A program made the position numbers and the translations under genes. A stretch of 64,000 bases of DNA from Candidatus Micrarchaeota archaeon (lineage in GTDB: Archaea > Micrarchaeota > Micrarchaeia > Micrarchaeales > CABMGC01). Under the pieces are notes generated by a model. It made no database searches. It was not told where the DNA came from and was given only the letters and a program-made list of their open reading frames with translations. The stretch covers positions 17,030-81,029 of the forward strand of contig JAGWHD010000001.1 of NCBI GenBank assembly GCA_028866995.1, given 5' to 3'. Within the stretch, counting starts at the first letter, position 1. Each line of letters opens with the position of its first letter. This document shows positions 1,083 to 47,386 of the stretch, one piece after another.

Positions 1083-1958
1083 TCACGTCGTTGGGGCAGT
1101 ATACCTGGATTGCCAGTTGGCGTTCCAGATAACGTTTGTCGCAGTCCCTTGGTTGTTGTTTCCTGAGTAATCATTCGCGTTCCCGTTGAGCGGCCACCAT
1201 CCGACTATATGTCGTATGTCAATCGGCGCGCCGCCGATCCCCTCCTTGTAAAGGGAGTTTACCGTACGGTTATCAAGCGATGTGTTGTATATCTGTACGT
1301 CTGCGATTGAACCGTTATAGTAGCCGAATCCGCCATCCCCTATCTGCGCGACTGTTCCTCCATTAGTATTTATCGTGCACGGGGCAGTATAATTCAGCCT
1401 GTTGCCACCATTCAAGTAAAACGTTACTACGTTTGTGCCGCTATTGAATACTGCGGTGTAGAACTGCCAATTTAGATTGGATCCGTAAGTAGGCCCATTG
1501 ACCTGGCAGGTCTGCAGATGCAGGCCGATCTGGCCACTTGTCGCCCAAGCAAAGACGTACGTTCCTTGCCCTATGTCATTACCGTACGAGAATACGCCAT
1601 TGGCAGTGGTATCGCTTGAACTTGGCTTGAACCAGAAGGTGATCGTCCTCGCATTGTTTCCCGAAGGCATCCCCGTAGCTCCCATGGTGATATAGCTGCT
1701 CGCCCCGTTGAACTGCCCGACGTATTTGGGGATCAGGTTGCTGCACTGGCCTGCAAGGCTTGTCTGCGCTGCTGTCCTTACAACCTGGCAGGATCCTGGA
1801 GCTGCGGTGGGCTGAAGGTTACCCAAATTGAATATTCCAAGAGAGTATAAGGAGACCATGACGATCGCGATCGCGAGGATGGCCCAGCCGTAGGTCATCA
1901 GGTATTCCATCGCCGACTGCAGCATTGTCCTGGGCCTTGAAGTCGCCATGATAGCCAT
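1083..1958 (-). CDS. class III signal peptide (archaeal type IV pilin-like) protein with LamG/ConA-like lectin domain, paralog 1
   Basis: N-terminus is ..LQSAMEYLMTYGWAILAIAIVMVSLYSLGIFN (a charged/QSA motif followed by a hydrophobic helix). The core has the LamG_3-like motifs TITFWFKP, FYLNG and GSIADVQIYNTSLD. The C-terminal tail is GWWPLNGNANDYSGNNNQGT. It lies 43 nt downstream of rps5 on the same strand. Confidence 0.75.
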   Translation of the reverse strand: MAIMATSRPRTMLQSAMEYLMTYGWAILAIAIVMVSLYSLGIFNLGNLQPTAAPGSCQVVRTAAQTSLAGQCSNLIPKYVGQFNGASSYITMGATGMPSGNNARTITFWFKPSSSDTTANGVFSYGNDIGQGTYVFAWATSGQIGLHLQTCQVNGPTYGSNLNWQFYTAVFNSGTNVVTFYLNGGNRLNYTAPCTINTNGGTVAQIGDGGFGYYNGSIADVQIYNTSLDNRTVNSLYKEGIGGAPIDIRHIVGWWPLNGNANDYSGNNNQGTATNVIWNANWQSRYTAPTT

Positions 1959-2001
1959 TTGACTGAAAGGCTCTTAATTTTATCAGTGGCCTTGTTTAGG
2001 A

Positions 2002-2685
2002 TTAGTCCTGCTTGCCCCTTTCCTTGACAGCGAGCGCATCCACGTTCTTTATCTCAGAGAGGCTCTTGAGCGCGTCGTACGTTGCCAGAGCTGCGTTGTA
2101 CTTGTCCCTGGTCCTTCCCCTTGCGAACGTCCAGACGTCCTTGATTCCTGCGAGCTCGAGAACCGCCTTTATCGTTTTTGCCGCGACTATGCCGACTCCT
2201 TTTGGAGCTGGCTTGAGTATGACATTGGATGAGCCGCACTTCGCCTTGAGCGTCATTGGTATTGAATGCCTGGTGCCGCAGTTGCACTCCCATGAGCCGC
2301 AGCCTATGTTTACCGATATTATGTGCTTCTTGGCATCCCTGATCGCCGTCTCTATCGATGGCTTTACCTCGACGTCCTTTCCCACACCTATCCCTACGTG
2401 TCCGTTCTTGTCGCCTATGATGACGGTTGCCCTGTACTTCTGCTTCCTGTTGTTCTTGGTCATCCTCTGCACGCTTGCGATCTCTATGACGTTGTCCTCG
2501 ATGTTGGGTATGAGCGCGTCTACGATCTCCACCTCCTTGATTACCTTGCCGCTCTCGAATATCTGCTCTATGCTCGTTATCTCCTTTGCCTTGACCATCT
2601 CGCCTATCTTCGTCTTCGGCTTCCATTCGTCTATGTTGAACCTTATCTCAGGCTCCCTTCTGTTGTAGTTCCTATTGTAATTCAA
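2002..2685 (-). CDS. rps5: 30S ribosomal protein S5
   Basis: IFESGKVIKEVEIVDALIP..VQRMTKNNRKQKYRATVIIGDKNGHVGIGVGK..; position after L18 in the conserved operon. Confidence 0.9.
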   Translation of the reverse strand: MNYNRNYNRREPEIRFNIDEWKPKTKIGEMVKAKEITSIEQIFESGKVIKEVEIVDALIPNIEDNVIEIASVQRMTKNNRKQKYRATVIIGDKNGHVGIGVGKDVEVKPSIETAIRDAKKHIISVNIGCGSWECNCGTRHSIPMTLKAKCGSSNVILKPAPKGVGIVAAKTIKAVLELAGIKDVWTFARGRTRDKYNAALATYDALKSLSEIKNVDALAVKERGKQD

Positions 2686-2689
2686 TCAA

Positions 2690-3259
2690 TCACTTAATCT
2701 TGGCCTTTACCTCTGTGAAGAGCTTGTGCATCTGCTCCGGCTCTATCTTCTTCTCCAGCAACCCTGAGAACTGCCTCTTGTAAGCCTCTGCGTCCTTGCC
2801 CTTCAGCTCCTGCACGTACTTTGTGTTCGAGTAGTCATATATATTGCTATCCATCTCGAAGGTGCCCCTTACCTTCACTCCTGCGTCTACGCATCCCTTC
2901 GCGAAGACGAACGGTATCGAGTTCTTGACAGGAGAGGTTATCCCTATGTCGAGTATGTACTCCTTGGACGGTCCCTGCTCCTTCAGCTTCTTCGCGAGCA
3001 GCATGCCCGTTAGGTATGCGGTGCCCCTGTTGGAATTGGATGGCCAGCTGAACTTCCTGAGCTCGTTGGAATCTGCGAACGCTATCGTCTGGTCCCCTTT
3101 CTCGGTGTACCTGACAGCATGCGCTATTATCCTCTTGTTGGTCTTCCTGACCACTATCCTGTCTATTCCGGACTTGACCAGCCTGAACCTCTTCTTGTAG
3201 TCCGTGAGGGCCTCCCTCCTTCTCCTGAATTTCATTGCCTTGATGTTCATGAGCATCAC
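2690..3259 (-). CDS. rpl18: 50S ribosomal protein L18
   Basis: FRRRREALTDYKKRFRLVKSG..RIVVRKTNKRIIAH; operon position between L19e and S5. The exact start among several N-terminal Met codons is uncertain. Confidence 0.9.
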   Translation of the reverse strand: MMLMNIKAMKFRRRREALTDYKKRFRLVKSGIDRIVVRKTNKRIIAHAVRYTEKGDQTIAFADSNELRKFSWPSNSNRGTAYLTGMLLAKKLKEQGPSKEYILDIGITSPVKNSIPFVFAKGCVDAGVKVRGTFEMDSNIYDYSNTKYVQELKGKDAEAYKRQFSGLLEKKIEPEQMHKLFTEVKAKIK

Positions 3260-9552: not shown

Positions 9553-10788
9553 TCACTTCTTCGCCTTCTCGGCCTTGCCGTTCTTGCCCTTGGCGCTCTT
9601 TCTCGCCATGTAGAACCTTGCGGCTATGACTGCGATGATTGCGACCGCGGCTATCGGCAGCAGCGGTATCCCGTAACCCGGATTCGCCACGGTGACGAAG
9701 TAGTTGTCCGAGCCCGAGAACTGCTGGTTGACGGCGCCGTTAGGCTGCTTCCATTGCTCGTAGAGGGTCACAGGATAGTTGCCAGGGACTGCAGCTGTGT
9801 CGATGTTGACCAGGAAGGTGACGTTTGCCGAGGCTCCAGGTTCAAGGCTGTTGACATAGGCGGTGCTCGCCACAGGCGTCAACGGATACGATGTCTGAAG
9901 GTTCAGCTGCATCTGCCTGGCCTGCGCGGTCCCCGTATTCGTGACCTTCATGTGGACCGGCACGTCCACCGCGCCGACCTTCGGCTCGGTGTCGCCCGAG
10001 CTGATCGCGAACTGCGCTGATGGCGAGACAGACAGGTTGACGCTCTGCGTGCTTGAGAAGCGCTGTTGCAGTGTTGAGGAGTAGAAGCTCGCGTCGGCAA
10101 TAATGCTTGTGCTGCTCGTGTTGTGCGCAGAGATGAGGAGAGGCTCTGTCACTGTGGAATTATGCGTCAGGTTGGAGATGAAGAATGTTGTCACGGAACT
10201 CAGGATGTCGAGTCCCGGGCCCGGGGATACCGATACTGTGACGTTCCTTGCGGTGCCATAGCCGGTATTCTGTATGTGCAGTGAGACGCTCTGGTTGTAC
10301 CCGGAGTAGAGCGCTGCGGGCTGCGGATTTGCCAGAGTCACTGTTATCGATGGCTTGTTCTGCACGTAGAACGTGACAGGCATCGCCGAAGTCGCTATCA
10401 CTGTTCCAGTAGCCGCGTACACGAAGTACGTGGCGGTGAATGTGACGGTGTAAGAGCCAGCTGTCGTGGTGTTCGGCACCGCGAACGTATAGTTATAGTA
10501 TGAGCTGCTGAATCCCGAGGACACCTGCCCTAGCACGATGGAGTTCTGCGGTGAGACGTTGAGCAGGGGGTATGTGCCGCTAGGCTGCAGCGTCGTGCCG
10601 TAGATGTTGTAGTTGAATGTGTTGTACAGCCTGAACTTTATGTGGACGTCTCCGCCGCCGAGGACTGGATTCGGCGATACCGATACGTTTGCCAGGGAGA
10701 GCGCATTGTCGTACGTGCTCGCGGCGCTTACAGAGCCGCCGATGACGGCCAATGCAACGAATGCCCAGAGGAACGGTTGTATTCTCAT
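9553..10788 (-). CDS. secreted surface protein with repeated beta-sandwich (CARDB/NEW3-like) modules and a C-terminal TM anchor
   Basis: Signal peptide MRIQPFLWAFVALAVIGGSVSAAS; repeated modules of the type V.V.N.G...A.NV.V.V; many N-x-S/T sequons; C-terminal TM helix plus K-rich tail. It lies directly downstream of the ABC-2 permease. ATG 10788 is preceded by GGTGGA. Confidence 0.6.
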   Translation of the reverse strand: MRIQPFLWAFVALAVIGGSVSAASTYDNALSLANVSVSPNPVLGGGDVHIKFRLYNTFNYNIYGTTLQPSGTYPLLNVSPQNSIVLGQVSSGFSSSYYNYTFAVPNTTTAGSYTVTFTATYFVYAATGTVIATSAMPVTFYVQNKPSITVTLANPQPAALYSGYNQSVSLHIQNTGYGTARNVTVSVSPGPGLDILSSVTTFFISNLTHNSTVTEPLLISAHNTSSTSIIADASFYSSTLQQRFSSTQSVNLSVSPSAQFAISSGDTEPKVGAVDVPVHMKVTNTGTAQARQMQLNLQTSYPLTPVASTAYVNSLEPGASANVTFLVNIDTAAVPGNYPVTLYEQWKQPNGAVNQQFSGSDNYFVTVANPGYGIPLLPIAAVAIIAVIAARFYMARKSAKGKNGKAEKAKK

Positions 10789-10812
10789 TTTTCCACCAAT
10801 AATCATGATTGT

Positions 10813-11935: not shown

Positions 11936-12910
11936 CTATCTACCCATCAGAGTCCTGGTCCTGGAGGTGTCCTCGCCCGTCTGGTCCCTTACCTCCGAAC
12001 CCGTCAGTTTCAGGAAGACGTCGTCGATCGTGGGCTCGTGCATGCTTATGTTGTGTATCGCGATCTTGCTCGCCGATATCGCCTTGACAAGCATCTCTAT
12101 CTTCTCAGTCGCCTTGCTCCCTCCTGGTGCGGTGATCCTGTTGGTTGCGACCTGGGGTTCAAGGCCCACTTTCTTGAAGATGGCCTTGAGCCTGTCCATG
12201 TCCTCCTTGTCAGCCGATACCTCTATCACGTTGCTCATGCCTATCTTCTGCCTGAGCTCTGAAGGTGTGCCTAGAGCTATCATCTTCCCGTGGTCGATTA
12301 TCCCGATCCTGTCGCAGAGCTGGTCGGCCTCCTCCAGGTACTGCGTGGTGAGCAGTATGGTCACGTTCTGGGCCTTGTTCATCTCACGCAGAAGGCCCCA
12401 TATCTTCGTCCTGTTCTGGACGTCGAGCCCTGTCGTGGGCTCGTCAAGCAGCAGGATGTTCGGCGTGTGCATCAGCGCTTTTGCGGTCTCGAGCCTCCTC
12501 TTCATGCCCCCTGAGAATGTGCCCGCATACGTCTTCCTGAATCCCTCAAGGTCCGAAAGCTTCAGGGCGAAGTCTATGCTCTTCTTCAGCTCCTGTTGGG
12601 GTATGTGGTAAAGCCTTCCGAATATCATCAGGTTGTCCTCGGCTGTTAGCTCCGGCTCGACAACTGTCTCCTGCGTGACTATCCCTATATCCTTCTTGGC
12701 CTTTTGCGGGTCCTTCTGCATGTCTATGCCGTCTATGAGGATCTTGCCCGATGTCGGGGACAGGAGTCCGAGGATCATGTTTATCGTGGTGCTCTTGCCG
12801 GCGCCGTTCGGCCCCAGCAGCCCGAATATCTCCCCCTTCTTTATGTTCAGGCTTATGCCGTTGACGGCCGTGAAGTCGCCGAACTTCTTGACCACGTTCT
12901 CCAGTTTCAA
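11936..12910 (-). CDS. ABC transporter ATP-binding protein (DrrA/CcmA-like)
   Basis: Walker A GPNGAGKST, signature FSGGMKRRL, Walker B ILLLDEPTTGLD. Confidence 0.9.
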   Translation of the reverse strand: MKLENVVKKFGDFTAVNGISLNIKKGEIFGLLGPNGAGKSTTINMILGLLSPTSGKILIDGIDMQKDPQKAKKDIGIVTQETVVEPELTAEDNLMIFGRLYHIPQQELKKSIDFALKLSDLEGFRKTYAGTFSGGMKRRLETAKALMHTPNILLLDEPTTGLDVQNRTKIWGLLREMNKAQNVTILLTTQYLEEADQLCDRIGIIDHGKMIALGTPSELRQKIGMSNVIEVSADKEDMDRLKAIFKKVGLEPQVATNRITAPGGSKATEKIEMLVKAISASKIAIHNISMHEPTIDDVFLKLTGSEVRDQTGEDTSRTRTLMGR

Positions 12911-12923
12911 TATGTCCAGGCAA

Positions 12924-13244
12924 TCACTTCAACAGCTTTTTCATGTATGTCATCGTCTTGAGACGCATCTCGAGCGCAGACTTCAGCGCCTTTCTGCCCT
13001 TCTTCGTTATGGTATAGTACGTCTTCGCCCTTTTCCCGTCGCTTCTCCCCGAAACCTCTATCAGCCCTATGTGCTCGAGAGCGTTTATTGAGTTGTAGAC
13101 GTCGTTCTTGAGGTCCGTCTCCGTGTAGTGGAAGAACTTCTCCTTGCCAAGCCTCTTGACCAGCGAGTACGGATAGACCTTGCCGCGGCTCGCCTTCAGC
13201 AATATGACCATCTTGAGTATAGTCCTCTGCATCTCCTTGTGCAT
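12924..13244 (-). CDS. PadR-like winged-helix transcriptional regulator
   Basis: 106 aa: ILKMVILLKASRGKVYPYSLVKRL...LIEVSGRSDGKRAKTYYTITKKGRKAL. ATG 13244 is chosen; the longer ORF (to 13577) runs through an AT-rich promoter region and into the divergent gene. Confidence 0.65.
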   Translation of the reverse strand: MHKEMQRTILKMVILLKASRGKVYPYSLVKRLGKEKFFHYTETDLKNDVYNSINALEHIGLIEVSGRSDGKRAKTYYTITKKGRKALKSALEMRLKTMTYMKKLLK

Positions 13245-13282
13245 GTAGTCGGGAAAAAGCCCTTCCTTCAATCTATCACTAT

Positions 13283-13313
13283 AGTTTGATTCCAAACAGT
13301 TTGAATTTAAACT
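13283..13313. promoter_or_regulatory. tandem imperfect palindromes, candidate PadR operator
   Basis: AGTTTGATTCCAAAC followed directly by AGTTTGAATTTAAAC. These are GTTTG-N4-CAAAC and GTTT-N6-AAAC half-site pairs, with 12 of 15 positions shared by hand count. They lie 40-70 nt upstream of the PadR ATG in the divergent intergenic region. Confidence 0.35.
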
Positions 13314-13470
13314 ATCATGTATTAATACCTTTCGTAGGGGTGGTGCGGCCATTGCCAGGCATGATGTGCACGGGGCGAAGTTGTATAGGGATATAAATGC
13401 ATCTGCACAATTAGGATTAGGTGTCCAGTTGCTTAGGATCGTAGGCAGCAGGGAAATTACAGAGATACTG

Positions 13471-14520
13471 ATGTTCTTCGTCATAGTGCAGTTCGTAGGC
13501 CTGCTGCTCGTGATGATGAACGTTGGCTTCTCCACGCTCGGCACCATAAGGGCAGGGATATCGAGCGACCAGTCCACGTACCTTTCCTATCTCTTCGACG
13601 CCATACTGGTCCTCATATTCGCCTTTGTTATAATAAGGAGGCACAGGCACCACTACACGAGCATGGACGGAAACAGGCTGTTCCTCGTGATGGAGGTGGT
13701 GGTGATAACACTGACGTCTTATTTCACCTTCATGTTCATCTTCGCCCTGTTCCTTCCTGCATCGTCATACCTGTACTACGCGCTGAGCCTCGGCTGCGCT
13801 GTCCTTCTCATACTGCTCAAGGAGCGAACCCTGTTCTTCAGGAATGCAGCTACGACAGTATCGAGCATAGGCGTCGGCCTCTTCCTAGCCATGTACCTGG
13901 GTTTCCTCTACACTCTCGCCCTTCTGTTTGTTGTGGCGATTTACGACTACTTCTCAGTATTCGTGTCGAAGTCCATGATAAAGCTTGCCAAGGCCATAGA
14001 CAAGAGGAACGTGGCCTTCCTGATCAAGGTGGAGAGCGTGAGGGACCTGCCACCGGGAAGCTTCAGCAAGAAGGAGCTCAAGGAGTACCTTTCGTACATA
14101 CACAGCAATCACGAGGACAAGAACCCGATATTCAAGAAGATACTTGAAGAGGGAGATGTTCCTGTCGTAAGCAGGCTTGAGCTCGGTGAGGGCGACCTGG
14201 ACCTTCCGCTCATGGTGGTTGCCAGCTCCTTCCTTACATATACCAACCCGTTCGTGAGCGTCACGATTGTCGCTGGGGCCACGATAGGGCTCCTTGCGAC
14301 GCTCCTTATCATGAAGGCGTACCAGAGGCCCATGCCAGCGATACCTCCCCTATTCGCATCCATAGCGATAACAACAGGGCTTGTGTCGCTAAGGAGCGGC
14401 TACCATTCCATTACCATGAATCTTGGTCTCGTAGCCCTGGGGATAGCCGTCATGCTGGTGGTGCTGATAAGGGTATTCAGGGACGGTTCGAAGGACAGGA
14501 AAAGGCCGCAGACGCAGTGA
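13471..14520 (+). CDS. presenilin/signal-peptide-peptidase-like intramembrane aspartyl protease (A22 family, archaeal PSH type)
   Basis: Multi-TM protein with ordered motifs AIYDYFSVF (the YD motif), LGEGDLDLP (the GxGD motif) and PMPAIPPLF (PAL-like), plus a hydrophilic loop between the two Asp motifs. The first in-frame ATG is 13471; an upstream GTG at 13366 is an alternative start. Confidence 0.6.
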   Translation: MFFVIVQFVGLLLVMMNVGFSTLGTIRAGISSDQSTYLSYLFDAILVLIFAFVIIRRHRHHYTSMDGNRLFLVMEVVVITLTSYFTFMFIFALFLPASSYLYYALSLGCAVLLILLKERTLFFRNAATTVSSIGVGLFLAMYLGFLYTLALLFVVAIYDYFSVFVSKSMIKLAKAIDKRNVAFLIKVESVRDLPPGSFSKKELKEYLSYIHSNHEDKNPIFKKILEEGDVPVVSRLELGEGDLDLPLMVVASSFLTYTNPFVSVTIVAGATIGLLATLLIMKAYQRPMPAIPPLFASIAITTGLVSLRSGYHSITMNLGLVALGIAVMLVVLIRVFRDGSKDRKRPQTQ

Positions 14521-14553
14521 GGCGCAAGGCGCCCGGTTTCGGCCTATGCCGGC

Positions 14554-17500: not shown

Positions 17501-18357
17501 TTTCCTGTGGTATTGCTTGGATTGATCACTGCAGTTCCAGAGGTCATGATCTGGTTTCCGTAGGCATAGACATATTGCCAGCCGTTCCATTGCTTATTCG
17601 TTATGTTGGTGAAGTACATGTCCAGGTAATGGCTTATTGTCGAAGGCGTGTTGCCGTAGGAACCATTGAGGATCAGTGCCCGGGTTCCAGTGTCGTTGAA
17701 TGTTCCTATGAAACCAGTTGTGGAGTTATGTGGCGAGAAGTTTCCGTTAAACGTTATCTCCTGTGATCCGTGCATGTCTACCGTGCCATTGGAAGGCTCC
17801 AGGATTGTGCCGTCGTTCGGGCTCTTTGCGCCTGCAAATGTGTAGGACTTCCCAACGTCAGTAAGATTTACCAGGTACGAGTTAGGGCCTGTCTGCCAGG
17901 CGGTAATTGTCCTTGTGAAGTTGTCAAGGGCCCAGGTGTATGAGCCGCCGTCGGGATCGTTTATTACGTTTGATATTACGGAAAGGATTTGTTTGTTATT
18001 TACTGTTTGGGTTATCGGAGCGCTGGTACTTGTCGTGTAGTTCGTATCCCCAGCGTATTTTGCGGTTATAGAATCTGATCCTGCAAGCAGCGCCGATGTT
18101 ATAAGTGTAGCTGATGCCGCCAGAGTTGTGCCTGTGCCGATCGCCTGTCCATTGCTATAGAATGTTATGGTTTCGCCATTGGGAACGCTGCTATTCACTG
18201 TTGCAGTAAATGCCAGCGTATCCCCGTATACCGAAGGATTTGCACCAGAGGTCAAGGATACTGAGGTTGTCGTTGCAGATTGTGCGTTCGCAGATGCTAT
18301 AAGGATGAAGAAAACCGTTAACAATGCTATGCCATGCAAGGCGGACTTCATGCGCAC
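14554..18357 (-). CDS. giant surface (S-layer/adhesin-like) glycoprotein with signal peptide, Ig-like N-domain, (AB)2 repeat block, Thr/Ser-rich stalk and C-terminal TM anchor
   Basis: 1267 aa. Signal peptide MRMKSALHGIALLTVFFILIASANAQS; dozens of N-x-S/T sequons; internal repeats; TTATTSSSTTVTTT linker; C-terminal AAGVAIAIGIAIGLIYPRMIQQRRKR. Confidence 0.8.
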   Translation of the reverse strand: MRMKSALHGIALLTVFFILIASANAQSATTTSVSLTSGANPSVYGDTLAFTATVNSSVPNGETITFYSNGQAIGTGTTLAASATLITSALLAGSDSITAKYAGDTNYTTSTSAPITQTVNNKQILSVISNVINDPDGGSYTWALDNFTRTITAWQTGPNSYLVNLTDVGKSYTFAGAKSPNDGTILEPSNGTVDMHGSQEITFNGNFSPHNSTTGFIGTFNDTGTRALILNGSYGNTPSTISHYLDMYFTNITNKQWNGWQYVYAYGNQIMTSGTAVINPSNTTGNIVVNPALIVNVTTQIVNNPDSGDHGYWALDNFTRQIKIYQTGLHSFMMNFTDSGLSYTFAGVQSPGILNVVEPYNGVVQMTGSASTIFNGTFSPGSNSVTGTLPTLNNNGKFTGTSIDTSNTVSTYQYYIGTYFINFDSANYSGSANNGGGWTYTNSTYPSNGNKWVDSNTNNWGTDASAGDIVAVNTQKPIVNVTTQIVNDPDGGSYTWALDNLTRTITVWQTGLHSFLINFTDTGKSHTFAGALSPNSNTIREPSNGTVDMRGSQEITLNGTFSPQANTIGSIGTFDDGGTYALILNGSYGSTPSTITHYLAMYFTNITNKQWNGWQYTYTYGNQTMVSGSAIINSNNTTGNIVVNPALILYVTAKIANDPDSGNNGYWALDNFTRTIKVYQTGLHSFKASYKDSGYSYTFAGAKSPLNGVAQPADGIMTMKGYENITFNGAFSPGTNTVSTSGAPIGTLDLKGTPANVINSTYYNTHPPLSTTDYYLNSYFPGFTNRSIPTWSWSYVLLGTTNTAMDSYTFGGFGGNDIVTSASSAPTSSGNVNATKSNFDMPSTTTGQASLPTGHNSITLSNNTVLDLANSVQTASSGNVIVGGNTISLSTGFKIGSSTVNLTKPQTVGGQTVKVDKAVMLTSGQNGASIVINNTALSKVSVAIPNGTTVLAPSNWTGTITPPKKANVSGSAPSGFSVGNTVIEVGSPNVVLLFNKPATILLPGVNGTVGYKPAGSDSWVQITSKCGGTYAAPSDPEFPGECYISNGTDTKIVTYHFTTFGSLNVNAAPSGGTSGSGGSGSSGNTPLPGGAGSSVPVVSQVSNSCYDISNFAQLNTASMVINGRPFSVVENFITPTSAGVSVNGASYTLDSGQTVTISSDSTGTATVQLKSIQYVPIQNTVDVGVCFTLPATTATTSSSTTVTTTIPANATAIAAVPPNETVNATATQPATQAPAVPAAAVAAGVAIAIGIAIGLIYPRMIQQRRKR
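15873..17997 (-). repeat. in-frame tandem duplication inside the giant surface protein gene: two 1062-bp (354-codon) units, each made of two related ~175-aa modules
   Basis: The motif NDPDGGSYTWALDN[FL]TRTIT.WQTG occurs at aa 133 and aa 487. Related B modules carry N[ND]PDSG..GYWALDNFTR.IK.YQTGLHSF. A 38-nt run at 16520-16557 is identical to 17582-17619 (offset 1062). The block boundaries are approximate. Confidence 0.7.
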
Positions 18358-19492: not shown

Positions 19493-19493
19493 G

Positions 19494-29413: not shown

Positions 29414-30298
29414 TCACGAAGTTGGTGCAGTATATCCTGACTGCCAATTCGCGTTCCAAACGACGCTTGTTGGTGTTCCCTGGTTGTTGTTGCCTGAATA
29501 ATCGTTGGCGTTGCCGTTGAGTGGCCACCATCCGACAAGATGTTGGATATCTATCGGCACACCGCCAATTCCTTCCTGATAAAGCGACTTTATGGTGCTT
29601 GCATCTAAGGATGTATTGTATACTTGTACATTGGCCATGGAGCCATTAACGTTTGCGTAAGAGCCTGACGTCATGCCCCCTATTCTTAAGTTATCTTGAC
29701 TACTGCCGTGATAAAGCGTGCTTCCGCAGCTAGAGCTGCTGCCTTTCAGAACGCCATCTATGTATATGCCCCTTACTCCGCCGTCGAACACGAATATTAT
29801 AGAATGGAATGTATTTAGTGGTAATGAGGCATTAACATTCAGGTCAGGACATCCGCCATTATAAGTGCCATCGGTGGAACCGTAGAAATGTATAAGACTG
29901 TTTTCTAGCTCAACAGAGAATACACTGCCCGTTCCTGTATACCATCTCTCTACAAACATCTGCCTTGGTACGAAATTCCCAGGACTTATCCAGATCGAAA
30001 CTGTTAAGGAGCTCGAAACAGTCATTGATGAGCTTGAACCTGCGTCTATATATCCGCCTTGGCCGTTGAACTTTCCCACGTATTTAGGGATTAGACCGTT
30101 GCATTGCCCTGCAAGGCTCGTCTGCGCCGCAGTTCTGACAACCTCGCACGAACCCGGAGTCGCTGTCGGTTGCAAGCTTCCTGCGTTGAATATCCCAAGA
30201 GAATAAAGAGAAACCATGACGATTGCGATTGCTAAAATTGCCCAGCCGTACGTCATCAAATACTCCATCGCTGACTGCAGCCTTGCCATGGTAGACAA
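29414..30298 (-). CDS. class III signal peptide (pilin-like) LamG-domain protein, paralog 2
   Basis: MSTMARLQSAMEYLMTYGWAILAIAIVMVSLYSLGIFN...GSMANVQVYNTSLD...GWWPLNGNANDYSGNNNQGT. Confidence 0.75.
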   Translation of the reverse strand: MSTMARLQSAMEYLMTYGWAILAIAIVMVSLYSLGIFNAGSLQPTATPGSCEVVRTAAQTSLAGQCNGLIPKYVGKFNGQGGYIDAGSSSSMTVSSSLTVSIWISPGNFVPRQMFVERWYTGTGSVFSVELENSLIHFYGSTDGTYNGGCPDLNVNASLPLNTFHSIIFVFDGGVRGIYIDGVLKGSSSSCGSTLYHGSSQDNLRIGGMTSGSYANVNGSMANVQVYNTSLDASTIKSLYQEGIGGVPIDIQHLVGWWPLNGNANDYSGNNNQGTPTSVVWNANWQSGYTAPTS

Positions 30299-33140: not shown

Positions 33141-34229
33141 ATGGCTAGGGCTTTCCTGAACGGCCTGCTCAACCTCGTTGCGATATGCTTCGTGGTCCTT
33201 GCCGTGATAATACTCATGAAGGTGTGGGGCATCGGCATCCCATTCCTCAACGTCACCCAGAGCATACTTGCCAATTACACAGTGTCTACAATACCCGTGT
33301 CTACGCTGAACGGCTCACAGGACCAAGGAAGCGCTGGCAATTCCACAGCGCAGGGCAATGACCTGTACCAGTACGCGCTGTCCCTGATAAACAAGGACAG
33401 GAACTCTTTCGGGCTCCCTAATGTCAGCCTCGCGAGCGAGGTCTCAGGGCAGCAGCACTCTGACAGCATGCTCCAGAATAACTACTTCAGCCACTGGGAC
33501 ACGTACGGCATGAAGCCCTACATGAGATATACGCTGGTGGGAGGGACGCAGGCTGTGAGCGAGAACGTTGCATACGAGCAGCAGAGCTACCAGACCTGCA
33601 TAGTCAAGTGCTACGACAGGGGCACGCTCAACCCTGCCAACGCGATATACAACATGGAGTACAGCATGATGTACAACGACTCGATATGCTGCAGCAACGG
33701 CCACCGCGAGAACATACTCGACCCTAACCACAACCAGGTCTCGATAGGCATAGCGTACAATTCCTCGACAATCTACTTCACCGAGGACTTCATAGACAGC
33801 TACATCAACTGGAGCATAGGAAGCCCTGGGGCCTCGAACGGCACTGTGCTGCTCAAGGGTTCGGTTGCCGACGGATACAGCCTGCAGAGCGTGCAGATAG
33901 GCTACGACGACGCTGTCAGGAACATGACTATGGCAGAGCTGGCCGCGACTAGGGCTTACGGTTACGGCGACACTGTTGGCGGAGTCTCTAGCAGCAGCTT
34001 CGAGTACTATCCCGGGCTGACGACGATAGTCGCGAACAGGTACAGCGTAAAGGGCGGCAGCTTCGACATACTGTTCAACATGGGAGAGCTGATTAGCAAG
34101 TACGGCGCAGGAGAGTACACGGTAGAGGTGTGGCTGAACAAGACAGGGACTGGCAGCGGCTTCATAGGCTCCACATACACTGTCTTCGTCAACAGCGAGG
34201 GCAGGCAGTACGTACCGCAGAACGTCTAG
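33141..34229 (+). CDS. membrane-anchored secreted CAP/SCP (PR-1-like) domain protein with C-terminal beta-rich domain
   Basis: N-terminal TM anchor; YALSLINKDRNSFGLP..HSDSMLQNNYFSHWD..GHRENILDPNHNQVSIG (CAP domain motifs). Confidence 0.6.
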   Translation: MARAFLNGLLNLVAICFVVLAVIILMKVWGIGIPFLNVTQSILANYTVSTIPVSTLNGSQDQGSAGNSTAQGNDLYQYALSLINKDRNSFGLPNVSLASEVSGQQHSDSMLQNNYFSHWDTYGMKPYMRYTLVGGTQAVSENVAYEQQSYQTCIVKCYDRGTLNPANAIYNMEYSMMYNDSICCSNGHRENILDPNHNQVSIGIAYNSSTIYFTEDFIDSYINWSIGSPGASNGTVLLKGSVADGYSLQSVQIGYDDAVRNMTMAELAATRAYGYGDTVGGVSSSSFEYYPGLTTIVANRYSVKGGSFDILFNMGELISKYGAGEYTVEVWLNKTGTGSGFIGSTYTVFVNSEGRQYVPQNV

Positions 34230-35136: not shown

Positions 35137-35248
35137 GCGAACGTAGTCTAGCCTGGTAGGACTCTGGCCTTCCATTTCTGAAACTTTTACGAAAAGTTTC
35201 ATCAAAAGAGGTAAGCCAAAAACCCGGGTTCAAATCCCGGCGTTCGCA
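35137..35248 (+). tRNA. tRNA-Gly (UCC) with a 39-nt canonical-position intron
   Basis: The exons are identical to tRNA-Gly(GCC) in the acceptor, D and T arms. The anticodon arm is CTGGC CT-TCC-A / A GCCAA. After removing 35175-35213, the 73-nt cloverleaf is restored. Confidence 0.8.
35175..35213 (+). other. tRNA intron (between positions 37/38) with BHB-compatible fold
   Basis: CTTC (35169-35172) can pair with GAGG (35208-35211), flanked by the 3-nt bulges CAT (35173-35175) and TAA (35212-35214). The intron contains a perfect 10-bp hairpin, TGAAACTTTT-acg-AAAAGTTTCA. Confidence 0.6.
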
Positions 35249-36453: not shown

Positions 36454-37344
36454 ATGGCAATGGAGGCGTTTCGCGCAGGAATCAGATCGCAATCGGCGAT
36501 GGAATACCTCATGACTTACGGATGGGCGATCCTTGCAATCGCAATAGTCATGGTATCGTTGTATTCTCTCGGGATATTCAACTCAGGGAGCCTGCAGCCC
36601 ACTGCGGCTCCAGGTTCATGCGAAATTGTCAGGACAACAGCGCAAGCATCGCTTGCAGGGCAGTGCAATAATCTGATGCCTAAATATGTGTCAAGACTCA
36701 ATGGTGCAAACAGCAACATCATAAGCACAAACAAGATAACCTTTACAAGCACATCGCCTTGGTCGATATCGGTGTGGATTAATGTTGCCAAGTTTAGTTG
36801 CAGTGGCAGTTACTGGGCAGGAATCGTCGCAATAGACAGCCTCAACAGAGTATCCATAGATGAGGATTGCAGAAACAGTAACGAGATAACTACGTGGGTT
36901 TATGGCGTCACCGAAGGAGGATTTCCAGGTGCAGCATCAAGCCTTTCATCGGGAAAGTGGTACAACTACATCGCAACATATGACGGCAATACGCACTATA
37001 TCTTTTACCTGAATGGCAAACAGGTAGGAGCTGCCACAGATTCGGCTTCATATTCAGGTTCGGGATACGCAAACATAGGTTATGAAAGCTTCTCCTCGCT
37101 CTATCTTAACGGCTCTGTTGCGAACATCCAAGTGTATAATGCATCGCTCGATAATATTTCTGCAAAGGCTCTTTACCAAGGAGGTGTGGGAGGAGTGCCA
37201 GTAGACGTAAGGCACCTGACTGCATGGTGGCCGCTGAATGGGAACGCGAACGATTATTCAGGAAACAACAACCAAGGGACCGTTTCAGGGCAAGTTGTCT
37301 GGAACGCGAACTGGCAGTCTGGATACACAGCACCTTCGAGCTGA
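36454..37344 (+). CDS. class III signal peptide (pilin-like) LamG-domain protein, paralog 3
   Basis: MAMEAFRAGIRSQSAMEYLMTYGWAILAIAIVMVSLYSLGIFN...GSVANIQVYNASLD...AWWPLNGNANDYSGNNNQGT. The upstream in-frame start at 36412 is less likely. Confidence 0.75.
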   Translation: MAMEAFRAGIRSQSAMEYLMTYGWAILAIAIVMVSLYSLGIFNSGSLQPTAAPGSCEIVRTTAQASLAGQCNNLMPKYVSRLNGANSNIISTNKITFTSTSPWSISVWINVAKFSCSGSYWAGIVAIDSLNRVSIDEDCRNSNEITTWVYGVTEGGFPGAASSLSSGKWYNYIATYDGNTHYIFYLNGKQVGAATDSASYSGSGYANIGYESFSSLYLNGSVANIQVYNASLDNISAKALYQGGVGGVPVDVRHLTAWWPLNGNANDYSGNNNQGTVSGQVVWNANWQSGYTAPSS

Positions 37345-41661: not shown

Positions 41662-42060
41662 CTACAGCTTGATGGCCTCGCCTCCCGCCTTAGTTATCTT
41701 CTCCTGCGCCTTCTTCGAGAAGGAGCTTGCCTTGACTACGACAGCCTTCGAGAGCGTGCCGTTGCTCAGTATCTTGTAGCCCTTCAGCTCCACGGTGGGC
41801 TTCGCTTCCTTTGAGCTGCGCGCCTTCCTGTCCACAGTGTTGAGGCTGGCCTCCTTGAGCTGGAAGCGCCTCCATTGGTTGAACCCGGGGTCCCTGACAG
41901 CCAGCTTGTCGTAGATGACGCGGTGCGTGAACATGCCCTTCCTGTTCCCCTTCCCTACTCCTCCCCTGCTTCCTGATCCTCTCCTGTTCTTGATGTTGCC
42001 CCAGCCCCATCTCCTGCTCCCGAGGAACTTCCTTGATCTTTTCTTAGTCCTTAGTACCAT
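41662..42060 (-). CDS. rpl15: 50S ribosomal protein L15
   Basis: KKRSRKFLGSRRWGWGNIKNRRGSGSRGGVGKGN. Confidence 0.85.
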   Translation of the reverse strand: MVLRTKKRSRKFLGSRRWGWGNIKNRRGSGSRGGVGKGNRKGMFTHRVIYDKLAVRDPGFNQWRRFQLKEASLNTVDRKARSSKEAKPTVELKGYKILSNGTLSKAVVVKASSFSKKAQEKITKAGGEAIKL

Positions 42061-44870: not shown

Positions 44871-46510
44871 TGCCAACGGCAACGTTCAACAGGGGATATT
44901 TCGACAGGCTCATGGGGTTCAAGCTCACTGACAAGAAGCTGGAGGAGCAGTGCGGCAAGATGGGCATGTCAGTCGAGAGCCTCAGCGCCAAGGAGATAAC
45001 CGTCGAGGCGTCGCCTAACAGGCCTGACCTGCTCGACTGTGTAGGTTTCGCGAGGGCGCTCAAGAACTACATGCACAGGAGCAAGAGGCTCAGCTACCAG
45101 CTGAAGGACGCGAAGCCATACCTGGAGATAGAGGTCGAGAAGGAGGTCAAGAGGGTAAGGCCGTTCATATCCGCGTTCGTTGCGCTTGACGTGAAGCTTG
45201 ATGATGAGAGCCTTGCGAACCTGATAAACTTCTCGGAGAAGTTCTGCGAGGGCTATGGCAGGAAGAGAAGGAAGATAGCGATGGGCATGCACGACCTGGA
45301 CAGGGTCAAGGGCAAGGTGCGCTACAACGCCTATCCTGACGAGGCGCTCGCGCCGCTGAACGAGAAGAGGGAGAGGAGGTTCTCTGAGATACTGCTCAAC
45401 CACAGCAAGGGAAGGGAGTACGGATACACGATAAGGAACGGCGAGGACGGATATCCGGCGCTCAAGGACGACGAGGGCGTGCTCAGCCTGATACCGATAA
45501 TAAACTCGGAGAGGACAAGGGTGACCACATCCACAAGGAACCTTCTCATCGACATAACAGGAACGTCGCAATACCTTGTCAACAAGTGCGCGGACATGTT
45601 CGCCGCAACGTTCATGGATATAGGCGCGGATGTAAGGCCAGTGATGCTCAAGCAGATGGGCAAGAGGTACACGCAGCCTGAGATGAAGGAGAGGTACATA
45701 GAGATGCAGCTCTCCAAGGCGGAGCAGGAGATAGGCGTGAGGATAGGCTTCAGCAATGTCATATCTCTCGCTAACAAGGTTGGCTACGAGGCTGCGCTGG
45801 TCGGCAAGAGCATCAGGTTCAAGGTCCCGGCATACAGGCTTGACGTGATAGACGAGCAGGACATAGTCGAGGACCTTGCGATAGCCTACGGCTACGACTA
45901 CATACCTGCGATAGCCCTTGGCGCGACCCAGCAGGGCGAGCTGAACGCGGCTACGGAATTGTGCGAGATGCTCTCGGAGCTGATGCTGGGATTGGGATTC
46001 GACGAGATGGTCAATTCGTATCTGACTAATGACGATACGAACTTCGCGAGGATGAGGCTTGAGAAGGACGCTAACTACTGCGTGAGGCTGAAGAACCCGA
46101 GGAGCGAGAGCGTCACAATAATGAGGACGTGGCTGCTGCCGGGGCTCCTGAAGAACCTGGGGCTGTCGCAGCACGACAGCATGCCCCATAACGTCTTCGA
46201 GAACGACCTTGCATTCACCGTAAAGGCCGAGTCCGTATTCGAGAGGCTGCACCTAGCAGCCGTGTCCTCGCATTCAAAGGCCAACTTCAACGACGCGAAG
46301 GCTACGGTCCAGGCAATCAGCGACTCGATGGGCCTTGAGATAAAGATCAGCAAGCACGAGCACAGGAGCTTCATAGATGGGAGATGCGCGAAGATCACGA
46401 TTGCCGGGAAGGACGTCGGCTTCTTCGGCGAGCTGCATCCGGAGGTACTCTACAACTTCGGCATAGAGGAGCCTGCGATAGCCTTCGAGATGGAGCTGCC
46501 GTCCCTCTGA
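44870..46510 (+). CDS. pheT: phenylalanine--tRNA ligase beta subunit
   Basis: MPTATFNRGYFDRLMG..EASPNRPDLLDCVGFARAL (archaeal PheT B3/4 region). Its start overlaps the pheS stop (TAATG). Confidence 0.9.
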   Translation: MPTATFNRGYFDRLMGFKLTDKKLEEQCGKMGMSVESLSAKEITVEASPNRPDLLDCVGFARALKNYMHRSKRLSYQLKDAKPYLEIEVEKEVKRVRPFISAFVALDVKLDDESLANLINFSEKFCEGYGRKRRKIAMGMHDLDRVKGKVRYNAYPDEALAPLNEKRERRFSEILLNHSKGREYGYTIRNGEDGYPALKDDEGVLSLIPIINSERTRVTTSTRNLLIDITGTSQYLVNKCADMFAATFMDIGADVRPVMLKQMGKRYTQPEMKERYIEMQLSKAEQEIGVRIGFSNVISLANKVGYEAALVGKSIRFKVPAYRLDVIDEQDIVEDLAIAYGYDYIPAIALGATQQGELNAATELCEMLSELMLGLGFDEMVNSYLTNDDTNFARMRLEKDANYCVRLKNPRSESVTIMRTWLLPGLLKNLGLSQHDSMPHNVFENDLAFTVKAESVFERLHLAAVSSHSKANFNDAKATVQAISDSMGLEIKISKHEHRSFIDGRCAKITIAGKDVGFFGELHPEVLYNFGIEEPAIAFEMELPSL

Positions 46511-46525
46511 GGGCCAGGTGCAGGC

Positions 46526-47386
46526 ATGGACAAGGCAGTATCGGGAAAACTCCAATCGGCGATGGAATACCTGATGACTTACGGATGGGCGATGCTCGCG
46601 ATCGCGATTGTCATGGTATCTCTTTATTCGCTGGGGATATTCAACGCTGGAAGCCTGCAACCGACAGCCGCCACAGGCGCATGCAAGGTCATAAGAACTG
46701 CAGCGCTGACCAGCCTCGCAGGGCAGTGCAACGGCCTTATCCCGAGATACGTGGCAAGGTTCAGGGGGTCGAACAACTGGGTGCAGGTACCGAATTCCGC
46801 AACGCTGAACATAACAAACAACAACATCACAGTAGCTGCATGGGTATATCCGGTGAACTCGGTGAACTACATGAGGATAGCGACGAAGACCTATACCGGA
46901 GCCTGGGCTCTGAACTTCCAGACTAACACCTATGTTGTGAACTTCGACCTTGGAAAGGGAGGGGTTTCAAGCGGGAGCGTGCTGAGCGCAAACTCCCTTA
47001 GGCAGAACAGGTGGTCATTCGTGGTAGGGACGTACAACGGCTGCGCTTTGAGCATATATATCAACGGAACATTGGACAATGCCGCGACGTGCTACTCGAA
47101 TGACCTGGGCACGGACACTGATCCAGTCTATATAGGATACGAAGGCGGGAGCCCGATGAACGGGTCCATAGCCAACGTGCAGGTCTACAACACTTCGCTG
47201 GATCCGGCGACCATCAAGGCGATGTACGTGGAAGGCATTGGAGGCGCACCGATAAACCTGAAGAACCTAGTTGGGTGGTGGCCTCTCAACGGCGACGCCA
47301 ACGACTACTCAGGAAACAACAACCATGGGACTCCGACAAATGTCATATGGAACGCCAACTGGCAGTCTAGCTACACGCAGCATTAA
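46526..47386 (+). CDS. class III signal peptide (pilin-like) LamG-domain protein, paralog 4
   Basis: MDKAVSGKLQSAMEYLMTYGWAMLAIAIVMVSLYSLGIFN...GSIANVQVYNTSLD...GWWPLNGDANDYSGNNNHGT. It lies 15 nt downstream of pheT. Confidence 0.75.
   Translation: MDKAVSGKLQSAMEYLMTYGWAMLAIAIVMVSLYSLGIFNAGSLQPTAATGACKVIRTAALTSLAGQCNGLIPRYVARFRGSNNWVQVPNSATLNITNNNITVAAWVYPVNSVNYMRIATKTYTGAWALNFQTNTYVVNFDLGKGGVSSGSVLSANSLRQNRWSFVVGTYNGCALSIYINGTLDNAATCYSNDLGTDTDPVYIGYEGGSPMNGSIANVQVYNTSLDPATIKAMYVEGIGGAPINLKNLVGWWPLNGDANDYSGNNNHGTPTNVIWNANWQSSYTQH

Follow-up and report, generated by a model that had tools for sequence, protein, structure and literature searches.

Related systems

Filament proteins with conserved, assembly-competent termini, a variable exposed region and homologous recombination at the conserved parts are familiar from Neisseria pilE/pilS and from flagellin/archaellin. 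The PilC protein of S. sanguinis is a minor type IV pilin of modular build with a proven ConA-like lectin module (PMC9934059), and a survey of modular pilins covers the bacterial IPR012902 motif only (PMC8179133). Within the archaea, the available part of the account of the micrarchaeon 'Ca. Mancarchaeum acidiphilum' Mia14 describes a LamG expansion alongside one FlaK-like peptidase and two loci for type IV pili (PMC5498576), and the available part of that on Undinarchaeota describes arCOG07813 LamG proteins (PMC7414124).

The window considered here (the whole stretch of 64,000 nucleotides that was analysed) belongs to a Candidatus Micrarchaeota MAG and encodes four LamG proteins, designated A to D. 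The reading that we favour, with moderate confidence, is that these are modular type-IV-pilin-like lectins whose assembly modules evolve in concert.

Gene organization

All four family members are complete ORFs, and the coordinates and strands given for them in the initial annotation are verified. Copy A (MDE1851085.1) is located on the minus strand at 1083..1958 and is composed of a leader (1920-1958), an N-module (1719-1919), a core (1317-1718) and a C-module (1086-1316). Copy B (MDE1851121.1) is also on the minus strand, at 29414..30298, with the leader at 30278-30298, the N-module at 30077-30277, the core at 29648-30076 and the C-module at 29417-29647. On the plus strand, copy C (MDE1851129.1) spans 36454..37344 (leader 36454-36489; N-module 36490-36690; core 36691-37107; C-module 37108-37341) and copy D (MDE1851140.1) spans 46526..47386 (leader 46526-46552; N-module 46553-46753; core 46754-47158; C-module 47159-47383). 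The NCBI starts of A (1949), B (ATG 30289) and C (ATG 36460) fall a few codons inside these ORFs. No fifth copy was found within the window using tblastn and a motif scan.

Copy A lies 43 nt downstream of rpS5 (2002-2685), and copy D lies 15 nt 3' of pheT and 9 nt ahead of a convergent RFC gene; the spacings to rpS5 and pheT are those first noted. Copy C is flanked by an MFS gene and a spermidine-synthase-like gene. A TATA-like AT-rich sequence is present approximately 25-35 nt upstream of three of the four copies. The genes are scattered among housekeeping genes. A scan of the 46 window proteins did not find a type IV pilus ATPase, platform protein or A24 peptidase, which bears out the earlier statement that the window is without pilus ATPase, platform or prepilin peptidase genes, and a search of the 1.3 Mb around 77 related loci turned up no T4P-type Walker-A ORF. 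The scanned window and flanks therefore exhibit no genomic linkage to assembly machinery.

Lectin domain and family size

Pfam Laminin_G_3 is matched above the gathering score by all four ORFs, with E-values from 2.7e-13 to 4.8e-25 (A, 5.1e-14; B, 9e-19; C, 2.7e-13; D, 4.8e-25). The AF2 model of copy D (pLDDT 89.3, pTM 0.85) consists of a helix plus a jelly-roll, with the helix at residues 12-35, a hairpin at 53-66, the jelly-roll and confident C-terminal strands at 248-276. Foldseek matched this model to ConA-like, pentraxin and LamG structures (best match 4dqa, E 4.9e-11), and a PDB profile search gave consistent matches across positions 78-236. The LamG jelly-roll proposed initially is thus borne out by Pfam, the AF2 model and Foldseek. 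A tail-plus-body construct is colinear with one canonical repeat from a protein with multiple LamG domains (E 3e-10), the tail at the C-terminus matching the strands that normally come first in LamG. On this alignment, the LamG (concanavalin-A-like) domain is circularly permuted, with the usual first strands (WWPLNG..DYSGNNN.G) located at the C-terminus and, in the monomer model, possibly folding back in cis. The globular domain is 27 kDa. Membership in TafC, the haloarchaeal Tat-fimbriae tip subunit, was rejected, as the NCBIfam match over the LamG part (E 4.3e-06) reached 26 bits against a cut-off of 410.

The MAG of the window encodes at least 22 paralogues, four of them within the window. 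Database searches returned 2,586 matches, at least 22 of which are from the source MAG, and at least 546 matches were obtained in GTDB representative genomes; the existing annotation of the family is "LamG domain-containing protein". It is a large paralogous family that so far looks to be essentially confined to Micrarchaeota. The large, dispersed, adhesin-like repertoire that had been proposed is supported by the paralogue count of the MAG, and these 22 or more genes with unrelated binding cores probably represent a repertoire of surface adhesins in a small genome.

Prepilin-like N-terminus

The N-terminus exhibits the features of a class III (prepilin) signal, namely K/R at -2, S/A/L at -1, Q at +1, E at +5 and a hydrophobic helix. 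Of the 117 members compared, which come from 43 genomes, 102 (87%) have K/R at -2 and 107 have S/A/L at -1, and QSAMEYLMTYGWAIL is essentially invariant. The Cys pair is invariant in family members (n=116), and together with the signal-position counts this supports the original description of a prepilin-like N-terminus followed by a Cys pair. The helix is identical in 21 of the 22 paralogues of the source MAG and is therefore likely to be kept in the mature protein, unlike a Sec signal peptide. Relatives also encode small non-LamG proteins of 170-215 aa with the same N-terminus. A VKOR-family gene (19494-19886, minus strand; Pfam VKOR E 5.3e-23) and a DUF929 gene (19890-20723, minus strand; E 1.6e-34) possibly encode extracytoplasmic disulfide-forming machinery, which may be relevant to the invariant Cys pair.

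The N-terminus could instead be an ordinary Sec signal peptide or signal anchor, giving a secreted or type II membrane LamG protein with no prepilin processing. With E allowed up to 10, none of the pilin or class III signal models of Pfam and NCBIfam matched the N-terminus, which is in keeping with this explanation, as is the Leu that three of the four copies have at -1; Gly, Ala or Ser is the usual residue at this position in the characterised substrates of archaeal prepilin peptidases. A further point in its favour is that Nanohaloarchaeota LamG proteins are listed among Sec-exported signal-peptide proteins in a genome survey (PMC9563170). Sec signal peptides are not conserved by residue, however, yet the QSAME block with Glu +5 and the entire hydrophobic stretch are invariant in 43 genomes, and a basic residue directly precedes the conserved block in 87% of members, making the Sec explanation improbable.

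The favoured reading of modular type-IV-pilin-like lectins would give the following layout: a short basic leader with a predicted prepilin-peptidase site just ahead of the invariant QSAME (Glu +5), then a hydrophobic helix of approximately 24 residues, a disulfide-bonded beta-hairpin and the circularly permuted LamG jelly-roll. Once cleaved, the helix would put the lectin into a type-IV-pilus-like filament, which the small pilins of relatives, sharing the same N-terminus, would be able to build, or it would anchor the lectin in the membrane. The shared part for assembly or scaffolding would consist of the N- and C-modules, and the ligand-binding surface would be provided by the core. On this reading the proteins would be exported and cleaved, and they may be built into filaments, bind glycans and act in contact with a host.

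A version of this layout that we regard as possible, though unlikely, is that the proteins are helix-anchored surface lectins that are never polymerised, in a bindosome-like arrangement; it differs from the favoured reading only in the final assembly state. In Sulfolobus, sugar-binding proteins carry class III signals without being subunits of a pilus. Such an arrangement agrees with the position of the genes, which are interspersed with housekeeping genes and have no pilus machinery close by; a domain of this mass is bulky, and at least 22 different paralogues would suit a mixed surface coat. Conversely, the extreme genome-wide identity of the helix suggests that it packs against the helices of common partners and does more than anchor the protein in the membrane, and the helix is common to the small pilin-like proteins.

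Conserved ends and divergent cores

The initial annotation described near-identical ends around barely alignable cores, and this pattern is verified by the identity per alignment segment. In the alignment of the four copies, N-terminal amino-acid identity is 0.97-1.00 in columns 16-45 and drops to 0.76-0.80 in columns 46-75, core identity is 0.03-0.33 over columns 91-240 (the cores being approximately 20% identical overall), and C-terminal identity over the last ~70 columns is 0.58-0.83. The terminal likeness was also correctly said to be visible in the DNA, as BLASTN between copies aligned approximately 200-230 nt at 76-80% at the 5' end only and 105-235 nt at 69-77% at the 3' end only, and the tract at 36490/46553 is identical at 40 of 41 positions. 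BLASTN found no second copy of any core within the window. The same codon is used at 0.40-0.51 of identical residues, against 0.44-0.46 expected from the codon usage of the window, so the DNA likeness is what amino-acid conservation alone yields. The G+C content is 0.45-0.53 for cores, 0.50-0.57 for N-modules and 0.47-0.54 for C-modules; the lower G+C reported by eye for the cores therefore stands as a modest overall difference, but GC3 shows no consistent drop in the core.

Recombination, selection and slot turnover

Between the window copies, dS is 1.3-2.0 or saturated for the N-module and 2.2-3.0 or saturated for the C-module, and the longest identical runs are 14-23 nt. Gene conversion between these four copies, as first suggested, is not supported, since the termini are at dS of at least 1.3, near or at saturation. 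The last homogenisation of the terminal modules in the window is ancient, and the window pattern is explained by purifying selection alone. Uniform synonymous divergence had been named as evidence against recombination, and the window copies come close to it, with high dS along the whole gene, whereas relatives show breakpoints.

The term "hypervariable", with its suggestion of diversifying cores, proved misleading. Copy B and its orthologue P0004 (85% identical), the only such pair for a window copy that could be compared as DNA, exhibit a core dN of 0.084, dS of 1.585 and dN/dS of 0.05, which indicates purifying selection and not ongoing diversification. Other orthologue pairs have a core dN/dS of 0.06-0.13. 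The cores are old, distinct and separately conserved types, and the ligand specificities would likewise be old and separately conserved, not rapidly mutating.

Across 43 genomes, the terminal modules group by genome and the cores do not. Identity within a genome against identity between genomes amounts to 0.82/0.57 for N-modules, 0.72/0.62 for C-modules and 0.20/0.19 for cores, and the nearest neighbour is in the own genome for 78/94 N-modules, 67/94 C-modules and 13/94 cores. Sharp DNA mosaics occur in relatives: the L016 pair has a nucleotide identity of 0.97-1.0 at +11 to +190, approximately 0.35 in the core and 0.93-0.97 at +712-770, and seven pairs have an N-module dS of 0.048-0.355 beside saturated cores. 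Reciprocally, the L040 tandem pair is identical in the DNA of the core and C-terminus and 64% identical in the N-module. P0016 and P0079 share a core identity of 0.53 and an N-module identity of 0.54, and the N-module identity to in-genome paralogues is 0.85. Recombination at the ends, as originally proposed, is thus upheld family-wide, and these patterns indicate that in the family at large the terminal modules evolve in concert via recombination.

Loci syntenic between the window and the sister genome REEA6 have flanks that are 73-89% identical and cores at 0.22-0.25 identity. The slot of copy C is also occupied in REEA6 (L001), with a core identity of 0.25; at the slot of copy B, REEA6 carries a syntenic copy whose core is unrelated, and P0004 is found in a different gene context (L078). 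Copy D is absent at the REEA6 pheT/RFC junction. In the window, D is flanked by the 8-bp direct repeat TCTGAGGG (plus strand), the left copy at 46506..46513 overlapping the pheT stop codon and the right copy at 47387-47394 being followed by TTCATCTGAGCTGG, in a region extending to 47408. TTCATCTGAGCTGG corresponds to the ancestral pheT end/RFC end present in REEA6, and the comparison indicates that D is an insertion at this junction.

An explanation without recombination, in which the ends are alike by purifying selection and each genome's family is its own recent expansion from one founder, gains from the sufficiency of selection for the window copies and from D, which demonstrates that new insertions occur. 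We judge it quite improbable given the N-module dS of 0.05-0.35 beside saturated cores with sharp boundaries in relatives, the reciprocal L040 mosaic and core-defined orthologues that carry own-genome N-modules, such as P0016 and P0079. At the other extreme, active antigenic or phase variation of the Neisseria pilE/pilS type, with frequent gene conversion reshuffling the expressed adhesin, would account for a variable middle between conserved ends and for the recent N-module homogenisation and module swaps in relatives. It is very improbable here, as each of the four copies is a complete ORF with a start codon of its own, three with TATA-like upstream sequences, tblastn and BLASTN found no truncated silent cassettes in the window, synonymous sites in the window are near or at saturation with identical tracts of at most 23 nt, and orthologous cores are stable under purifying selection. 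On the favoured reading of pilin-like lectins, the ends stay alike in each genome through strong purifying selection combined with episodes of recombination or gene conversion, and whole cores or whole genes are exchanged or inserted at recurrent chromosomal sites.

Comparison with known systems

Compared with Neisseria pilE/pilS, the window has no silent partial cassettes and exchange in this genome is rare on the synonymous-saturation time scale; in place of short minicassettes, what varies is an entire folded lectin core, indels included. TafC is an archaeal filament subunit with an outward LamG domain and a proposed adhesive role, but it is Tat-exported, assembled by donor-strand exchange and without a class III signal (PMC11821415). 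The LamG expansion of Mia14 and other DPANN is similar as a phylum-level phenomenon, a reduced symbiont genome holding numerous LamG genes of the jelly-roll kind (PMC5498576), and in the available parts of the two accounts these genes are proposed to act in host-cell interaction, some being linked to type IV pilus loci (PMC5498576, PMC7414124). The same parts do not describe a prepilin-type N-terminus, permuted LamG, module-wise concerted evolution or slot turnover. In a layout like that proposed for the window family, PilC combines a class III signal, Glu5 and a short pilin moiety grafted to a ConA-like lectin (PMC9934059), and its proposed filament display for glycan binding is analogous to the reading offered here. 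PilC is bacterial, is encoded by a single gene in a pil operon and has an extra Ig-like module; the window family is archaeal and dispersed, with at least 22 paralogues and a permuted LamG, and is without a separate globular pilin domain, the Cys hairpin joining the helix to LamG.

A dispersed family of LamG proteins with conserved ends

The window encodes four members of a family of Micrarchaeota proteins that combine a prepilin-like N-terminus with a permuted LamG domain: copies A (1083–1958, −), B (29414–30298, −), C (36454–37344, +) and D (46526–47386, +). All four ORFs are present as the initial annotation described them and are deposited under the name "LamG domain-containing protein" with KGH69_ locus tags. 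No fifth copy or fragment of the family was identified in the 64-kb window using tblastn, a motif scan or BLASTN. The overall identity among the four copies is 46–56%. In a codon-aware alignment, the conserved ends and dissimilar middle previously attributed to these proteins form a sharp three-part pattern: amino acid identity is 0.97–1.00 across the first 30 mature residues and about 0.8 from there to the motif P-K/R-Y-V (the N-module), 0.03–0.33 in a core of approximately 135 residues with many indels, and 0.58–0.83 in the last 75 or so residues (the C-module).

With a protein search at E ≤ 0.001, 2,586 relatives were found. Of the top 120, 18 are located on the 726,952-bp contig that holds the window and four on another contig of this MAG, which gives the genome at least 22 paralogues. 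A scan of the GTDB representative set, which excludes the window's own genome, gave at least 546 confirmed relatives, nearly all in Micrarchaeota MAGs. Searching with the N-module produced 2,099 matches at E ≤ 0.001, mostly of the same architecture of approximately 290 aa plus short fragments. From 77 fetched loci, 117 full-length members belonging to 43 genomes were extracted. The copies are dispersed in the window, and tandem arrays are found in some other genomes. Family members are also found on contigs binned as Saccharimonadales bacterium (L061, DATJMH010000029.1) and Marsarchaeota (L065, JAMCZN010000033.1), where mis-binning or misclassification is most likely, rather than true spread beyond Micrarchaeota.

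The LamG domain is circularly permuted

Assignment of the globular part to LamG is borne out by PF13385 (Laminin_G_3), which matches all four copies with 50.7–88.9 bits against a cut-off of 27.6. The AlphaFold2 model of D (pLDDT 89.3, pTM 0.85, 116-sequence alignment) predicts a two-sheet jelly-roll, preceded by an N-terminal helix (residues 12–35) and a beta-hairpin (53–66) flanked by the invariant cysteines C53 and C68, and followed by a second helix (227–236) and well-ordered C-terminal strands (248–276). Foldseek analysis of the model gave 595 PDB matches at E ≤ 0.001, with LamG, pentraxin and neurotoxin Hc-N domains at the top. A profile search of the PDB likewise places the globular part among the ConA-like, LamG and pentraxin folds.

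The strand order departs from that of a canonical LamG domain. The segment W-x-P-L-x-G...D-x-S-G-N, normally located before the F-x-G strand, is C-terminal in this family, and the tail that carries it (L-V-G-W-W-P-L-N-G-N-A-N-D-Y-S-G-N-N-N-x-G-T...W) corresponds to the segment with which a LamG_3 domain usually opens. When this tail is placed before the body, the construct aligns with a canonical repeat in a 907-aa multi-LamG protein of locus L031 without a break in order at the join (E 3e-10). The LamG domain is therefore circularly permuted with its fold membership unchanged, and the C-terminus is conserved because it is part of the framework of the permuted domain, not a linker. That the C-terminal strands fold back in cis is an assumption of the monomer model; pairing in trans would be the alternative, and the model does not decide between the two.

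Locus L031 (FK5.bin94) encodes three large proteins of 750–907 aa (12747–15467, 16123–18375 and 18351–20840), each containing multiple canonical LamG repeats; their genes come directly after two family copies that are themselves located behind rpS5. The first of these proteins (12747–15467) has a divergent, class III-like N-terminus.

A prepilin-like N-terminus with no pilus genes found nearby

The N-terminus has the features of a class III (prepilin) signal, as the initial annotation proposed: a short basic leader, a putative cleavage motif, Glu at +5 and approximately 20 hydrophobic residues predicted to form the N-terminal helix. The block QSAMEYLMTYGWAIL (QSAME, with the Glu at +5) is essentially invariant among the 117 members from 43 genomes. 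K or R occupies position −2 in 102/117 members, and S, A or L occupies position −1 in 107/117; the Leu at −1 in three of the window copies is, in our view, unusual. The N-terminal 70 aa did not match any curated pilin or class III signal family in Pfam and NCBIfam at E ≤ 10, a search in which the HMMER filters drop most matches above about 0.1. Export by a Sec-type route, favoured by the missing class III match and by the Leu at −1 but opposed by the invariant QSAME with Glu at +5 and the basic residue before it, is less likely.

Several related genomes also encode small, Cys-containing proteins of 170–215 aa that share the QSAMEYLMTYGWAIL N-terminus and have no LamG domain. These are found at L058 11572–12147 and 12277–12921, L033 4977–5486, L047 11819–12343 and L067 4103–4666. 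They are plausibly the ordinary pilins of their organisms; under the same Pfam and NCBIfam search (E ≤ 10, same filter limit) they too have no pilin-family match.

As noted previously for this region, a pilus ATPase, a platform protein and an A24 peptidase are all absent among the 46 window proteins scanned. In the 1.3 Mb of the 77 related loci, a screen for type IV pilus ATPases found GxxGSGKTT ORFs that encode only SRP54, ABC transporters and kinases, and motif and neighbour screens of the same loci found no pilus ATPase adjoining the LamG copies or the small pilins. Genomic linkage to pilus machinery is thus not supported. In the main rival explanation, the same proteins are helix-anchored surface lectins that do not polymerise. 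The lack of pilus machinery near the genes speaks for this explanation, and the near-uniform helix, shared with the small putative pilins, speaks against it.

The window encodes a presenilin/signal-peptide-peptidase-type GxGD intramembrane protease at 13366–14520 (+) (PF06550, E 2.1e-13). GxGD presenilin-type proteases are mechanistically akin to prepilin peptidases, yet lie outside the A24 family. VKOR and DUF929 genes are also encoded in the window and would fit extracytoplasmic disulfide formation, possibly involving the Cys pair of the family. For pilus machinery, the pilin-like reading relies on the Micrarchaeon Mia14, in which PMC5498576 reports a pair of type IV pilus loci and a single FlaK-like peptidase.

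Old core types under purifying selection

The cores had been described as hypervariable, but fast ongoing change is not seen. Copy B and its orthologue P0004 (Logan contig, 85% identical) have a core dN/dS of 0.084/1.585, no higher than that of the termini, and two further orthologue pairs in relatives gave core values of 0.06 and 0.13. Ongoing diversifying selection on the core is rejected by dN/dS values of 0.05–0.13 in the measurable pairs. Each core is an old type of its own, maintained by purifying selection. A diversity-generating retroelement was also considered and rejected, since there is no template repeat (the core DNA is single-copy in the window) and no reverse transcriptase among the 46 proteins scanned; nor is hypermutation of this type compatible with cores that differ by indels and at approximately 80% of residues.

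Homogenised modules and mosaic genes

Gene conversion at the gene ends had been proposed for the window copies. Recent tracts are absent among A–D, and the part of the proposal that stands concerns related genomes only. Third-position identity in the conserved termini is about 0.5, and identical residues use identical codons at frequencies of 0.40–0.51 in the N-module and 0.38–0.48 in the C-module, where 0.44–0.50 is expected from window codon usage. Nei-Gojobori dS values are 1.3–2.0 or saturated in the N-module, 2.2–3.0 or saturated in the C-module and at least 2.7 or saturated in the core, so that no module has a dS below 1.3, and pairs of copies share uninterrupted identity over at most 14–23 nt. 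The tract shared by C and D that had been cited as an example does match at 40/41 nt, but it is only marginally unusual and codes for Q-S-A-M-E-Y-L-M-T-Y-G-W-A. The N-modules exhibit a slight excess of identical bases (P 0.000–0.019, with the family's pooled codon usage as the null), which makes a faint signal of old conversion possible and does not indicate recent conversion. The DNA upstream of the four copies is unrelated, with TATA-like sequences upstream of A, B and C. Variation of the pilE/pilS type, with one expression locus and promoterless partial donors, does not fit the window, which contains four complete ORFs and no partial copies. An active, Neisseria-like variation system is a less likely explanation for the family; recent conversion tracts are seen only in related genomes.

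Across the family, the helix and hairpin C-terminal to the invariant block are nearly uniform among the paralogues of a genome and different between genomes; AIAIVMVSLYSLGIFN is read in 21/22 copies of the window's MAG. Mean identity of the N-module (positions 16–68) is 0.82 within genomes and 0.57 between them, and the nearest neighbour is from the same genome in 78/94 cases. For the C-module these values are 0.72, 0.62 and 67/94, and for the core 0.20, 0.19 and 13/94, with about 5 expected by chance. Orthologues defined by their cores can bear the N-module of their own genome: P0016 and P0079 have identities of 0.53 in the core and 0.54 in the N-module, whereas N-module identity to their in-genome paralogues is 0.85.

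Mosaics are also visible in the DNA of relatives. A pair in YF1.bin19 (L016) is 97–100% identical from +11 to +190 nt, approximately 35% identical in the core and 93–97% identical at +712–770, and seven pairs of relatives have N-module dS values of 0.048–0.355 beside saturated cores. In a tandem pair from FK5.bin94 (L040 1510–2421 and 2438–3313) the pattern is reversed, with identical core and C-terminal DNA (dS 0–0.04) and N-modules that are 64% identical. Such mosaics are direct evidence of exchange; short-read assembly could blur differences of a few percent, but should be unable to make them from diverged sequence. A model of selection only, in which the ends are alike purely through constraint, sits with the diverged synonymous sites of A–D and against these mosaics, and is less likely. 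Both N-modules of the L040 pair are atypical for FK5.bin94. An apparent 100% identity in the flank alignment of the L026 pair was discarded as overlapping flanks of adjacent genes, and dS was taken from coding sequences only.

Copies occupy recurrent chromosomal slots

Copy A begins 43 nt after rpS5 and copy D 15 nt after pheT, in agreement with the initial annotation. Family members are also found after rpS5 in two distant genomes (one of them convergent) and after pheT in another, all with unrelated cores. The gene for uL15 (PF00828) is located at 41662–42060 (−), approximately 40 kb from uL18–uS5 (2002–3259, −), which in this genome interrupts the customary order S5-L30-L15-SecY. The interruption is where copy A lies.

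The sister MAG REEA6 is syntenic with the window across the blocks MFS–copy–speE-like–beta-CASP and copy–cmk–helicase, with flanking proteins that are 73–89% identical. The occupants of these slots have core identities of 0.25 and 0.22 to C and B, respectively, beside N-modules that are 0.84–0.85 identical, whereas true orthologues of the two genomes have core identities of 0.71–0.86. Copy D is absent at the pheT/RFC junction of REEA6 (L001 19985–20000) and of DBS2-5.bin41 and, relative to REEA6, is an insertion of approximately 0.9 kb at this convergent junction. Comparison with REEA6 identifies a remnant of the ancestral pheT end, TTCATCTGA, within 47387–47408, just after D. An 8-bp direct repeat, TCTGAGGG, brackets D at 46506–46513 and at the start of 47387–47408; its three occurrences in the window compare with a chance expectation of 3.15, and on its own it is weak evidence for a transposition-like event. 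The slot comparisons and the insertion of D together indicate gain or replacement of copies at sites that recur, a pattern that does not tell ancestral slots with swapped content apart from repeated insertion.

The GC3 of family genes in this clade is below that of their neighbours, at 0.48–0.69 in the window (A 0.63, D 0.69, B and C approximately 0.48–0.50) against 0.70–0.82 for neighbouring housekeeping genes, and is 0.49 for L078 3649–4545 and 0.50 for REEA6 L001 9917–10852. The difference would be compatible with exchange involving a wider pool of genes and is not proof of it. There is no family-wide offset, gene G+C minus locus G+C averaging +0.008.

Elsewhere in the window, 26529–27024 (−) encodes a ParE toxin (E 6.8e-13) and a DUF7557 partner with a GC3 of 0.36–0.40, far below that of the genome; the pair adjoins tRNA-Phe (27196–27269) and is probably acquired DNA. 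A 112-nt tRNA match at 35137–35248 (+), just upstream of the MFS gene beside C, scores 53.8 bits with Rfam, was not called by ARAGORN and is presumably an intron-containing tRNA. Other likely surface proteins are a CARDB/NPCBM_assoc protein (9553–10806, −), a 1,267-aa protein with a Big_3_5 domain (14554–18357, −; GC3 0.58) and a CAP-domain membrane protein (33141–34229, +).

A lectin repertoire with a predicted pilin-like role

DPANN archaea, Micrarchaeota among them, spend their lives attached to host cells, and little is understood of how they recognise and hold these hosts. The best-supported reading is that the family is a repertoire of modular lectins with a predicted pilin-like function. 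A common assembly part, which comprises helix, hairpin and the framework strands from the two ends of the permuted LamG domain, would be joined to many different, putatively ligand-binding cores. Selection for compatibility with shared partners would keep the common part constant within a genome and recombination would reset it from time to time, while the cores would remain distinct types that move from site to site.

A more elaborate scheme, which we regard as rather improbable, is an adhesin system organised like cassettes. Assembly modules homogenised per genome by gene conversion would be common to dozens of lectin "pilins", and cores, possibly from the DNA of other strains, would be swapped into recurrent slots such as the ends of the rpS5 and pheST operons, retuning the symbiont's choice of host glycans. 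The permuted C-terminal strands could moreover be donated to the neighbouring subunit, giving a filament held together by helix packing and strand exchange.

Read as a repertoire of modular lectins, a family that occupies at least 2% of a genome of approximately 0.85 Mb is a concrete candidate for host recognition, with a pilus-type assembly helix, many different lectin cores and members exchanged between loci. It would offer testable reagents, with distinct cores for glycan arrays and a defined, predicted cleavage site, and a clean natural case of module-wise concerted evolution, in which assembly parts are homogenised and binding parts kept distinct. Expansion of LamG proteins in DPANN archaea, Micrarchaeota included, has already been published, with host contact as the suggested role (PMC5498576, PMC7414124). 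In the literature searched, the prepilin-type N-terminus, circular permutation, module-wise concerted evolution and slot turnover were not found described for this family. The modular lectin reading would carry the bacterial modular-pilin concept over to archaea. In PilC of S. sanguinis a lectin module on a pilin is proven (PMC9934059), and in haloarchaeal Tat-fimbriae the tip subunit, TafC, bears a LamG domain (PMC11821415).
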